From: Candidatus Portnoybacteria bacterium
GTDB lineage: Bacteria; Patescibacteriota; Minisyncoccia; Portnoybacterales; GWB1-42-6
Direction: 5' to 3'
NCBI GenBank assembly: GCA_016208745.1
Contig: JACQXN010000005.1
Span: forward strand, 1 to 46,624
Length of the DNA: 46,624 nt
The position numbers and the translations under genes were made by a program. Positions 4,747 to 7,612 of the stretch are shown here, in pieces (position 1 is the stretch's first letter; every line of letters begins with the position of its first letter). Under the pieces are notes generated by a model. The model searched no databases, was not told the DNA's origin, and saw nothing but the letters and a program-made list of their open reading frames with translations.

Positions 4747-5307
4747 TTATAATTTCTCATGTGCCTCCCTAACTTTTAAACAATACTTTTTAAGATCCTT
4801 AAAATCCTTTATCCCTAGCTCCCAAGAATCCAATCCCTTCCAACATATAGTAAATCTTTTTCCAGCAGGCCAAGCGTAATCTAAATTAATAGTTCCGACA
4901 GTCGGATCTGTGATTCTCCATTGTCTATCTATATATAGATCTACGAAAACATGCCCACTAATGATTTCTCCTTGTGATTTCAACCATTCAGTATCAAGCG
5001 CTTCTACAATCTTCGCAGGAATGCCATTGGCGCGCATTAGAGAAGCAAACACTACTGCCCTATCGCCACAACCTGAAGCTTTTTTACTTTTTATAACCTG
5101 TGCCGCGGTCCTCTTACGTAAATTATCTCTGCGCCAAGGCCAAGATTGAATATGTTTTAGATTCGCTTTTATCCAGCGAAAGGTATTAAAGGCAGTTTCA
5201 TAATCATTTCTTCCGAGCAATCGCTTGGCAATTTTTTTGATTTTCGGCGTGATTTTTGTCTGCTCCCCAGATTGCAAAAAATGCTTCGGACTTATAGTTT
5301 TAGTCAT
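4747..5307 (-). CDS. Transglutaminase-like domain protein
   Basis: Cys-His-Asp triad motifs GCGDRAVVFASLMRANGIPA, GHVFVD and WRITDPT. Confidence 0.85.
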   Translation of the reverse strand: MTKTISPKHFLQSGEQTKITPKIKKIAKRLLGRNDYETAFNTFRWIKANLKHIQSWPWRRDNLRKRTAAQVIKSKKASGCGDRAVVFASLMRANGIPAKIVEALDTEWLKSQGEIISGHVFVDLYIDRQWRITDPTVGTINLDYAWPAGKRFTICWKGLDSWELGIKDFKDLKKYCLKVREAHEKL

Positions 5308-5395
5308 ATCTTTATCCACTGTTATCCTAGAGTTTACTGGAAACAAAAAGTGAAGAATTGCGCGAAGAGGCAAATTTCACCCCGAAAAAAGATGA

Positions 5396-5770
5396 GCACG
5401 GGCTGAGGGTATCCTACGCTAAAGCTTCGGAATACCTAATTATAGACCAGTCTTATCATTCTTCAATGCTACGGAATTAAGTAGCCTTTTATACGCAAGT
5501 GCTTTACCGGAACCTGATTTTATATATCGCTCAAAATCTTTGGCCAATTTTTTCGTTTGGAATGCCGCGTAGAATACCAGCGTCCATGGCCTAAACGGTG
5601 CTGTGGCTTTTGAAAACCCGTTATTATGCTCCCCAAGTCTCTTTCTTAAATCTTCCGTGTAGCCGTAATAAAAGTTCTTAGATTTTAAGCTATATAAGAT
5701 GTAAACATAGAACATTTTTGTGGGCCAAAGCCATTCCGTAGCCTTGGCGAAGGATGGCACGGGATGAGGG
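5396..5770 (-). mobile_element. GIY-YIG mini-element: 23-bp inverted repeats plus duplicated tRNA-Trp 3' end
   Basis: IRs at 5411-5433 and 5733-5755 (19/23); direct repeat gcacggg(c/a)tgaggg at 5396-5409 and 5757-5770. Confidence 0.6.
5440..5715 (-). CDS. Small GIY-YIG nuclease family protein
   Basis: MFYVYILYS...YYGYTEDLRKRLGEHNNG...T...RPW.LV.Y...A..FERYIKSGSG. Confidence 0.9.
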   Translation of the reverse strand: MFYVYILYSLKSKNFYYGYTEDLRKRLGEHNNGFSKATAPFRPWTLVFYAAFQTKKLAKDFERYIKSGSGKALAYKRLLNSVALKNDKTGL

Positions 5771-5837: not shown

Positions 5838-6512
5838 TTATGCGCTAAATTTTTCTAAAAATGCCTTTCCCAAACCCAGCAATTCGCGTGCAACCGTGGC
5901 GTCATAATATTTGATATTTACACAGCCAGCGTATCCTGATTTTATATTTTTGCCCGCATTTGGCTTTATATAAGGTTTTATAAATTGAGAGCTCGGAATT
6001 TTTGCGACATCCGACCAAAACTTTATCTGCTCTTTCACTAAATGATATTTATGTATATGCAAGGAAACTCTAAACTTTGATTCGACTAACTGGAATGATC
6101 GTCTTAGTAAATTAAGAAATGCTCGAATCAATTTTGGATCAGAATTTGTGAATTGAACTTCCCCATCGTGACTTTTGCCACCCTCGCAGTAGTACATAAG
6201 GGCGCACATAATTTTAAGAATACCTTTATCGCATAATATCTGATTTCTATCATCTATTAGGTCTACGCCAGCCATAAAGCAGGCAAGACGACTAGCGTCA
6301 GTTTTTTCCTTTCTGTTTTTAGCCGAGATAAGCTGCCCCGATGTTAACCGCTTAGATAATCGGGCTGAAGCCTTATCCGAAAGAATAAAGTCGCGGAGCC
6401 AAAGAGAAGCAGTGCTCTTGGAAATCTTTAGCTTTCCGCTAATTTCATTCAGCGATAATCCCCTTCTTCTTAAGGCTTGGGCCTTTAAAAATTGCTTTTT
6501 TAATCGCGGCAT
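5838..6512 (-). CDS. tRNA-adjacent HTH + LAGLIDADG-like protein
   Basis: N-terminal HTH (LRRRGLSLNEISGKLKISKSTASLWLRD), then ALMYYCEGGK...FTNSDP...FWS...G.V.I. Resemblance to a LAGLIDADG fold is inferred. Confidence 0.65.
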   Translation of the reverse strand: MPRLKKQFLKAQALRRRGLSLNEISGKLKISKSTASLWLRDFILSDKASARLSKRLTSGQLISAKNRKEKTDASRLACFMAGVDLIDDRNQILCDKGILKIMCALMYYCEGGKSHDGEVQFTNSDPKLIRAFLNLLRRSFQLVESKFRVSLHIHKYHLVKEQIKFWSDVAKIPSSQFIKPYIKPNAGKNIKSGYAGCVNIKYYDATVARELLGLGKAFLEKFSA

Positions 6513-6694: not shown

Positions 6695-6853
6695 TTATTT
6701 TTTAGATTCTTTATGCGGTGTATGCTTGCGGCACCAACGACAGAATTTTTTTACTTCAATTTTGCGCTCAACTTTGCGCTTGTTTTTGCTTGACCAATAA
6801 TTAGTCCTCTTGCAAACTGTGCACTGCATTTTGATTAAATTTGGTTGCGGCAT
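6695..6853 (-). CDS. rpmG: 50S ribosomal protein L33 (Zn-ribbon type, 52 aa)
   Basis: Not in the ORF track. Reads MPQPNLIKMQCTVCKRTNYWSSKNKRKVERKIEVKKFCRWCRKHTPHKESKK. Confidence 0.95.
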   Translation of the reverse strand: MPQPNLIKMQCTVCKRTNYWSSKNKRKVERKIEVKKFCRWCRKHTPHKESKK

Positions 6854-7031
6854 GTTCACTATCGCTCAAGTTAAAAGTTAAAAATGAAAAGTTCAAATTT
6901 TTCTTTTTTAATTTTAAGATGTCGTTTTTATATTTTTTTGCTAAAGGCGAATCAGCCTCGGGCTGAAATTTTTACTTTTTAATTCCTCTTGAGCCGTTGG
7001 TCCCGCATCTTGCGGGACGACCCGTCTCTTG

Positions 7032-7301
7032 AGCCGTTGTCCGGAATCGAACCGGAGACCTACTCCTTCATTTTGTACCTCTTTTTATATAATACTTATA
7101 AGAGGATTAGACTGTATATTTGGCGTGTCTCAAATGAGATTTAGCCACCCTTGTCAGTCGTTCGTCCGCCTAAGGCGGAACGGTCTTAACCTAGTATAGG
7201 CCTTTAACCGTTATTCGGGATTCGCAATTAAATTTCTCTAATTGTGGGCATAGCCTCTGCGGCTTACCATGGAGTTGCTCTACCGACTGAGCTACAACGG
7301 C
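7032..7301 (-). tRNA. tRNA-Thr(GGU), split by an intron; exons 7266-7301 and 7032-7068
   Basis: Joined exons give GCCGUUGUAGCUCAGUCGGUAGAGCA-ACUCC-AUGGU|AA-GGAGU-AGGUCUCCGGUUCGAUUCCGGACAACGGCU, a complete cloverleaf. Confidence 0.92.
7069..7265 (-). ncRNA. Group I self-splicing intron (197 nt, no ORF)
   Basis: 5' exon ends in U and intron ends in G. P1 CAUGGU/GCUAUG with U.G; P2 AAUUAGA-GAAA-UUUAAUU; P4 AACGGU/ACCGUU; P7 GACUG/CAGUC; P9 CCUCUU/AAGAGG. Confidence 0.9.
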
Positions 7302-7346
7302 AAAAAATAACTTTGAACTTTTAACCTTAAACTTATACCTATCGTG

Positions 7347-7430
7347 TGGGCAGGGAGGGATTCGAACCCCCGTAGGCTAGAAGCCAGCAGTTTTACAGAC
7401 TGCCCCGGTTAGCCGCTTCGGTACCTGCCC
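7347..7430 (-). tRNA. tRNA-Tyr(GUA)
   Basis: GGGCAGG acceptor, GCAGU-CUGUAAA-ACUGC anticodon arm, long variable arm, GGUUCGAAUCC; CCA not encoded. Confidence 0.95.
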
Positions 7431-7459
7431 GTATCCAAAAATTCGAAATCTAAGTTTTT

Positions 7460-7535
7460 TGGAGCCATCCCGCGGAATCGAACCGCGAACCTACTGTTTA
7501 CAAAACAGTTGCTCTGCCGATTGAGCTAGGATGGC
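7460..7535 (-). tRNA. tRNA-Thr(UGU)
   Basis: GCCAUCC acceptor, ACUGU-UUUGUAA-ACAGU, U73, encoded CCA. Confidence 0.95.
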
Positions 7536-7612
7536 TGATGGAACTCCTTATAATTTAAAACGATAGCCGGCGGCTATCGTAGAACCTCCGACTTAAAACA
7601 TATTTTAAGTCT

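Follow-up and report, generated by a model that had tools for sequence, protein, structure and literature searches.

The 46,624-nt stretch of DNA analysed here, referred to below as the window, is contig JACQXN010000005.1 of a Candidatus Portnoybacteria genome (assembly GCA_016208745.1; 859 kb in 29 contigs, ~40% G+C, 97.8% complete), and it carries on its minus strand a tRNA-Thr(GGU) gene (7301-7032) that is split directly after the anticodon by an insert of 197 nt. We read this insert, with a probability of roughly 0.88, as a compact group I intron without an open reading frame (ORF), lodged at position 36/37 of the sole tRNA-Thr(GGU) gene of the genome.

The split tRNA-Thr(GGU) gene and the fold of its insert

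Exon 1 (7266-7301, minus strand, as for all features of the gene given here; 36 nt) comprises the 5′ strand of the acceptor stem, the D arm, the 5′ strand of the anticodon stem and the loop residues A-U-G-G-U, its 3′ end reading ..CCAUGGU. The insert (7069-7265) opens with AAGCC and closes with AAAAUG, the last letter being the terminal G (omega-G) at 7069, and exon 2 (7032-7068, 37 nt) starts with AAGGAG. An earlier note on this DNA had placed a 197-nt insert directly 3′ of the anticodon, with a U at the 5′ splice site and a G at its end, and had predicted that its excision restores the seven-nucleotide loop AUGGUAA; all of this was borne out, the insert spanning exactly 7265-7069 and its removal in silico giving a canonical tRNA-Thr(ggt) according to ARAGORN. 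The same note had warned that standard tRNA finders may overlook the gene, and both ARAGORN with default settings and the Rfam tRNA model indeed leave it unreported, so genomes of this kind appear to be devoid of tRNA-Thr(GGU). When introns were allowed, ARAGORN returned Thr(ggt) i(37,197). No second Thr(GGU) gene and no further intron-bearing tRNA were found by this program in the genome, whose 45 other tRNA genes, all uninterrupted, include Thr(UGU) and Thr(CGU).

From the window sequence alone the boundary can be shifted over as many as 3 nt, since intron and exon 2 both start with AAG, and it is the homologous introns described below, which start with G, U or AG, that fix the site at 36/37. 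In a model-based alignment, the U preceding the intron (U-1), the omega-G and the anticodon GGU were present in 95 of 95 full-length copies. Moreover, a rule demanding U before and G at the end of the intron selected 36/37 alone, with anticodon GGU, in 110 of 122 ARAGORN calls, and two loci inspected by eye (L004 and L010) obeyed the pattern GGU|...G|AAGG. The 95 full-length copies measure 171-243 nt, with a median of 194 nt, which places the family among the smallest natural group I ribozymes; the compactness that had been remarked upon for the window copy is therefore real but ordinary within the family, where 58 of the 95 are shorter than 197 nt.

Twelve related copies were folded together with RNAalifold, and from that alignment a covariance model, R1, was built, whose 103 matches, spread over the window and 99 loci, divide into 100 strong (108.9-216.4 bits) and 3 weak ones. 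The window copy, scoring 216.4 bits, was the single match of R1 in its genome. RNAalifold predicted helices P1, P2 and P4-P9, with compensatory changes in 24 of 51 pairs. After P3 had been added as a pseudoknot for the pair counts on the 103 aligned copies, 94.8% of the cells formed standard pairs, as against 75.8% in shuffles, both-sided changes were seen in 41 of 54 pairs, and the covariation score reached 0.460, compared with at most 0.076 when the partners were slid by 1-3 columns. Covariation is carried by P1 (its extension pair), P2, P5, P6, P8 and P9. In this line, the minimum free energy of the window pre-tRNA lies far below that of shuffled sequences (z = -5.03), none of 200 shuffles being as good.

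The helices follow the order P1-P2-P3-P4-P5-P6-P7-P3′-P8-P7′-P9, in which P3 and P7 form a pseudoknot. P1 (7247-7268) pairs the exon letters GGU (7268-7266) with the guide GCC (7249-7247), so that U36 (7266) faces G 7249 in a wobble at the splice site, and it is prolonged by an extension between AGCC (7264-7261) and GGCU (7255-7252). Among the 101 rows with letters at these positions (columns 5-7 with 75-77) the two G-C pairs occur in 99 each and the U.G in 100; the extension varies across the family and holds one or two bulged bases. The pairing CAUGGU/GCUAUG that had been proposed as P1 can form in this copy, but it was rejected as the conserved P1, most family members being unable to form it while the register GGU/GCC is invariant; the P7 proposed at the same time, GACUG with CAGUC, stood with both strands in place (7159-7155 and 7114-7110). 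P2 (7223-7246) is a hairpin closed by a GAAA tetraloop (7236-7233), with compensatory change in 10 of 10 pairs, and 97 of 99 copies have a loop of the GNRA type. P3 joins a 5′ strand CCC (7217-7219) to a nearly invariant 3′ strand GGG (7148-7150); a fourth pair, between a U and the base after GGG, was tried and discarded, since it clashes with the first, well-supported pair of P8, which holds P3 at 3 bp. P4 (7211-7206/7185-7180; overall 7180-7211) encloses P5 (7202-7198/7192-7188), with A-rich J4/5 and J5/4 between them, and is followed by the P6 hairpin (7165-7179), where 5 of 5 pairs show compensatory change. J6/7 is CGAAC in 97 of 99 copies and J7/3 is ACAA in 99 of 99. The 5′ strand of P7 lies at 7155-7159 and the 3′ strand at 7110-7114, the latter preceded by a J8/7 that reads AAUAUA. 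P8 (7121-7147) consists of an outer part (7147-7144/7124-7121) and an inner part (7139-7135/7132-7128), with compensatory change in 8 of 8 pairs, and P9 (7078-7105) is a hairpin pairing 7105-7100 with 7083-7078. Docking of the P2 loop into an 11-nt receptor in P8 was considered as a family trait and dropped, both halves of the motif occurring in just 4 of 99 copies.

Homologues and empty sites

A BLAST-type search of 60 relatives found homologues of the insert in 11, at 73-79% identity, two extra matches of 21-22 nt being set aside as noise. In all 11 the insert follows the GGU of a tRNA-Thr in the same tRNA cluster and places its final G before AAGGAG. Three of these split genes had been labelled Arg or His by ARAGORN, because the program put the boundaries elsewhere. 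A wider set was gathered by scanning species-representative genomes with a pattern of two conserved core blocks and a gap, which yielded at least 120 public contigs with the intron family at the same site. By their record titles, the matches listed are mostly from Patescibacteria (Saccharibacteria, many Parcubacteria/Paceibacteria groups, Peregrinibacteria and others), and about ten titles lie outside that phylum: one Pedobacter, five Gammaproteobacteria and three Bdellovibrionales, all assigned by the record titles of metagenome bins only, and Niastella populi. The latter is a cultured isolate of the Bacteroidota whose tRNA-Thr(GGU) (L070; NZ_LWBP01000002.1, 8001-16000; gene at 5196-5450, minus strand) contains a 181-nt member, so the family is not confined to Patescibacteria. 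There an integrase gene starts 37 nt downstream of the split tRNA, genes for a serine recombinase and a conjugation-type ATPase lie close by, and the intron family may travel with integrative elements.

The site is also found empty. At 17 syntenic loci of relatives from the same order an uninterrupted tRNA-Thr(GGU) stands at the corresponding place, and the junction predicted for the window, ..CCAUGGUAAGGAG.., is letter-perfect in 12 of them; the remaining five have GGU followed by AA and differ in the anticodon stem. The closest intron-less allele is identical to the predicted spliced product at 66 of 73 positions. Moreover, among 16 genomes of the family to which the host belongs, 7 are intron-bearing and a different 6 show the uninterrupted junction motif, with no genome in both groups, from which it would seem that each genome keeps one working Thr(GGU) gene; the three genomes that show neither are 80, 90 and 94% complete. 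The distribution of the intron is patchy even inside genera.

Inserts of 185-253 nt were also noticed at the same loop position of other tRNAs of Patescibacteria, namely tRNA-Tyr(GUA) (L033:7625-7895 and L095:7162-7436) and tRNA-Asp(GUC) (L066:1513-1802 and L078:5619-5946). R1 gives weak full-length matches to such inserts, of 19.5-21.5 bits (19.5 and 20.8 for L033 and L066), which points to related introns in these tRNAs.

Probable self-splicing and its alternatives

In the insert a U.G pair marks the 5′ splice site, an omega-G stands at 7069 and the core helices follow the canonical order; its invariant blocks at P4, at P7 5′/J7/3/P3′ and at J8/7/P7 3′ resemble the classical P, Q, R and S core elements. 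It resembles subgroup IC3 in size and position: the site in the anticodon loop, the length of 171-243 nt, a fitting inventory of helices and the GNRA loop of P2 were all seen, in a comparison made with the traits of the subgroup and not with a reference IC3 sequence. The earlier note's proposal of a group I intron is upheld by the canonical helix order with its pseudoknot, the covariation, the U-1 and omega-G of 95 of 95 copies, the intron-less alleles with the predicted junction, and a search of the genome in which no archaeal-type splicing endonuclease and no RtcB were found. The intron is very probably self-splicing, as judged from its sequence, with catalysis residing in the RNA itself, and the spliced product would be the working tRNA-Thr(GGU) of the cell. 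In such a scheme, folding of the pre-tRNA would pair the anticodon GGU with the guide GCC and create the wobble of P1 between U36 and G; P7 would bind a free guanosine, which would then attack after U36; the terminal G 7069 would occupy the same P7 site, and the freed 3′-OH of U36 would attack after 7069, joining GGU to AAGG and regaining the loop of a normal tRNA.

Several points weigh against this reading. An Infernal search with the Rfam model RF00028 (Intron_gpI), suggested beforehand as a check, failed for the window copy: it gave no match at the gathering score, none at E<=10 in a search of 801 nt (6800-7600), and none among the six matches of a whole-genome search at E<=10, though a probable intron in the 23S rRNA gene was picked up there. 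In addition, the 103-row alignment was fitted to the structure of the model, which favours the pairing counts, and P3, P4 and P7 pair but scarcely vary, so that covariation is silent on these three helices. The pattern of the wide scan required P7, J7/3, P3′ and part of J8/7, and the invariance of these elements in the wide set is thus partly a matter of construction. Finally, P3 has just 3 bp (CCC/GGG), and J8/7 is AAGAUA in 78 of 99 copies while the AAUAUA of the window copy is shared by only 10 of 99. On the other side, P7, J7/3, P3′ and the required part of J8/7 are also invariant in the 12 relatives found by the BLAST-type search. Moreover, RF00028 run on 12 loci gave full-length matches lying on the intron and on the correct strand in three, with sub-threshold scores of 19.1, 18.3 and 16.6 bits (gathering score 50). 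According to Williams 2020 (10.1101/2020.01.27.920355), the 12 seed sequences of the Rfam model include no bacterial one, and a discovery threshold of 18-20 bits was used in that work.

As for the 23S rRNA match itself, the host gene contains a sub-threshold hit to the full RF00028 model (34.4 bits, E 1.5e-7; G000:C28:20627-20798, minus strand; L166), which is probably a group I intron too; a weaker match of 18.9 bits lies at C27:413-553.

The alternative that survives best, and which we still regard as improbable, is that the insert is a decayed, non-splicing descendant of a group I intron, so that tRNA-Thr(GGU) is a pseudogene and ACU and ACC are read by tRNA-Thr(UGU). The unusual J8/7 would fit such a decay, as would an A.C mismatch in the window copy at a P2 pair (alignment columns 29/50) and the presence of Thr(UGU) and Thr(CGU) genes in the genome. 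Nevertheless, the positions that are invariant in the core are all intact and both exons are canonical, the window copy has the top R1 score, although it was among the 12 sequences from which the model was built, and the genomes of the host family have either the intron or an uninterrupted gene, as fits one working copy per genome. Less credible still is an intron of the archaeal or eukaryotic type, in which an endonuclease cuts a bulge-helix-bulge and a ligase joins the exons. Its location in the anticodon loop, beside the canonical 37/38 site, could suggest one, and translation in Patescibacteria is described as archaeal-like in some measure (PMC5370408). However, searches for the PF01974 splicing endonuclease and for RtcB (PF01139) matched control genomes but gave nothing in this one, which is 97.8% complete, and this argues against splicing by proteins; the conserved structure is moreover a group I core and not a bulge-helix-bulge, and U-1 and omega-G, conserved throughout, have no role in protein splicing. 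Equally improbable is an unrelated structured insertion that fell by chance into the anticodon loop, for instance a fragment of group II or a mobile element of miniature size. Although the locus of tRNA-Thr(GGU) has undergone other rearrangements (the 3′-end remnant of the window and the nested tRNAs of relatives, see below), the insert is single-copy in the genome, and all of the 95 full-length copies occupy the same site of the same tRNA; neither terminal inverted repeats nor a target duplication were seen around it, and its helix order and sub-threshold Rfam matches are those of group I.

Neighbouring genes, possible mobility and likeness to known introns

The group I intron thus proposed sits in a tRNA cluster with the order tRNA-Thr(UGU) - tRNA-Tyr - tRNA-Thr(GGU) - rpmG - ... 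- tRNA-Trp. All on the minus strand, the upstream neighbours are the uninterrupted tRNA-Thr(UGU) (7535-7460) and tRNA-Tyr(GUA) (7430-7346), the latter 44 nt from the split gene, and tRNA-Trp lies at 5828-5755. Elsewhere in the tRNA set of the host a tRNA-Ile has the anticodon UAU (G000:C1:5778-5850) and the tRNAs with anticodon CAU are just two, from which it follows that reading of AUA may need no lysidine-modified tRNA-Ile2 in this genome.

Directly downstream of the split gene there is a degenerate second copy of the 3′ part of the tRNA (6986-7031, minus strand), made of a T-arm-like hairpin and an exact repeat: the 14 nt at 7039-7026, which are the last 8 nt of the tRNA and 6 nt of trailer, recur directly at 6999-6986. 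A 10-nt probe taken from the 3′ end of the tRNA was met again within 150 nt downstream at 6 of 116 intron-bearing Thr(GGU) loci, as against 0 of 45 host tRNAs and 2 of 300 uninterrupted tRNAs from all loci. An nhmmer search for exon remnants returned mostly neighbouring whole tRNA genes, with clear partial copies in L011 and L036 only, the remnant of the window being too degenerate to score; the extra copy of L011 starts at the intron-less junction and that of L036 with the last bases of the intron. In this line, three genomes of the host family have an uninterrupted tRNA-Thr(GGU) that is enclosed, at the D-loop region, by another and broken copy of the same gene (L172, G002:C42:1250-1650; L173, G015:C57:2050-2450; L174, G013:C3:5650-6100), where the inner tRNA is bracketed by a 10-bp inverted repeat and flanked by the 5′ fragment and the 3′ part of the outer copy. 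Altogether, this suggests that incoming DNA has repeatedly targeted the tRNA-Thr(GGU) gene. In the window, an imperfect inverted repeat of 39 nt (6869-6907/7302-7340, 77% complementary, A+T-rich) also brackets the split gene and its trailer, and it may be a chance product of low-complexity sequence.

A minus-strand gene at 5838-6512, which stops 10 nt short of the downstream tRNA-Trp, encodes a 224-aa protein that combines an N-terminal helix-turn-helix with a LAGLIDADG-like domain. Its homologues (28% identity over 111 residues, E 1e-14) include ORFs of ~197 aa that immediately precede the split tRNA-Thr(GGU) gene of other genomes, and it is a paralogue of these. A profile of five members, run on the loci examined, collected 62 ORFs, of which 42 end between -44 and +131 nt from an intron-bearing tRNA-Thr(GGU), their stop codon often falling within the first bases of the tRNA; 3 stand at tRNA-Trp (the window, L152 and L067), 4 at tRNA-Tyr, 2 at tRNA-Met, 1 at tRNA-Thr(UGU), and 10 have no adjoining tRNA. 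Counted by locus, such a gene is directly upstream of the intron-bearing tRNA-Thr(GGU) in 31 of 94 evaluable loci (25 of the 83 public ones whose upstream sequence spans 700 nt or more, and 6 of 11 relatives), and directly adjoins tRNA-Thr(GGU) in none of the 17 intron-less loci, one of which, L139, has it 4 nt upstream of the neighbouring tRNA-Tyr and 148 nt from tRNA-Thr(GGU). The adjacency is an association and not a test, because the relatives are not independent. The window intron has no neighbour of this kind, there being just 44 nt between it and tRNA-Tyr.

The assignment of this protein family to the LAGLIDADG fold is a guarded one. A motif ..YWGEG.. has its E and G invariant in 19 of 19 aligned members, and Pfam LAGLIDADG_3 matches 2 of the 19 weakly (best E 0.0052). 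In the AlphaFold model of the 224-aa protein (predicted local distance difference test score 87.3), residues 94-224 came closest to LAGLIDADG proteins, though at middling Z, the best matches by VIA-align being I-DmoI (Z 6.5, root-mean-square deviation 2.5, 82 aligned), E-DreI (Z 6.0), an intein endonuclease (Z 6.0) and WhiA (Z 5.8). Foldseek against the PDB returned nothing for the protein at E<=0.001, and in a profile search of PDB sequences only the helix-turn-helix part was matched. A second nuclease-family gene of the tRNA cluster encodes a 106-aa protein with a GIY-YIG domain (5440-5760, minus strand; Pfam E 3.4e-17), whose annotated frame shares its first 6 nt with the 3′ end of tRNA-Trp.

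It is conceivable, albeit doubtful for the moment, that the spread of the ORF-less intron is helped by the LAGLIDADG-like genes at tRNA 5′ ends, and that tRNA-Thr(GGU) is a recurrent landing site for such DNA. If this were true, the window would hold a helper-less intron, a paralogue of the helper at tRNA-Trp and the scar of an old invasion (7031-6986), and the same process would also account for the nested tRNA-in-tRNA arrangement of L172-L174. This possible link, together with the scar, is the only part of the present analysis that might lead anywhere new, and the analysis as a whole leaves general knowledge of group I introns as it was. For annotation, R1 finds the split gene cleanly, and the U-1/omega-G rule sets its boundaries. 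The intron lives in an apparently required single-copy gene of genomes of ~0.6-1 Mb, and this setting, together with the small size of the family, makes its members handy minimal ribozymes and markers of horizontal traffic among Patescibacteria.

With regard to previous work, the four classical settings of bacterial tRNA introns (Leu, fMet, Ile2 and Arg, all IC3) were widened to 21 by Williams 2020 (10.1101/2020.01.27.920355), which also puts interrupted tRNA genes at 0.49 per genome in ‘metagenomic assemblies from unnamed phyla’, and a 2023 review (PMC10221324) states that self-splicing introns have been shown in tRNAs of the candidate phyla radiation as well. The introns of Azoarcus tRNA-Ile(CAU) and Agrobacterium tRNA-Arg(CCU) bear in Williams 2020 the names Ile2.5Ug and Arg.5Ug, within IC3, and we infer that site ‘5’ of this nomenclature is 36/37. 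In the papers searched we found no naming of a group I intron in a bacterial tRNA-Thr(GGU), the 17 settings added by Williams 2020 being named outside its main text. The caution on novelty that had been voiced beforehand was well placed: the kind of intron is already known, 36/37 is, if our equation of sites holds, the site of two classical classes, and the tRNA-Thr(GGU) class cannot be called unpublished.

The free-standing homing endonucleases of phages that act together with ORF-less group I introns, in what is called collaborative homing, offer one parallel. The likeness is that elsewhere a LAGLIDADG-like gene immediately precedes the intron-bearing tRNA-Thr(GGU) (31 of 94 loci); the homologous gene of the window, however, adjoins tRNA-Trp and not the intron, and the fold match of this putative nuclease is middling (best Z 6.5).

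The closest likeness is to the introns of Azoarcus tRNA-Ile(CAU) and Agrobacterium tRNA-Arg(CCU). The former measures 205 nt, has a 3-bp exon-guide pairing and makes loop-receptor contacts. Compared by description and not by alignment, the tRNA-Thr(GGU) intron has in common with these two the insertion point (as equated above), a U-1 that is the last base of the anticodon, an exon-guide pairing of 3 bp, the terminal G, the lack of an ORF, a length of ~200 nt, and a P2 with a GNRA loop in the absence of large peripheral domains. It differs from them in its host tRNA, Thr(GGU), in its host phylum, which is mainly Patescibacteria among the matches listed, and in a sequence too diverged to reach the RF00028 threshold. 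The family as a whole departs from the classical introns in a P3 of 3 bp and in the 11-nt receptor motif of P8, which is present in only 4 of its 99 copies.

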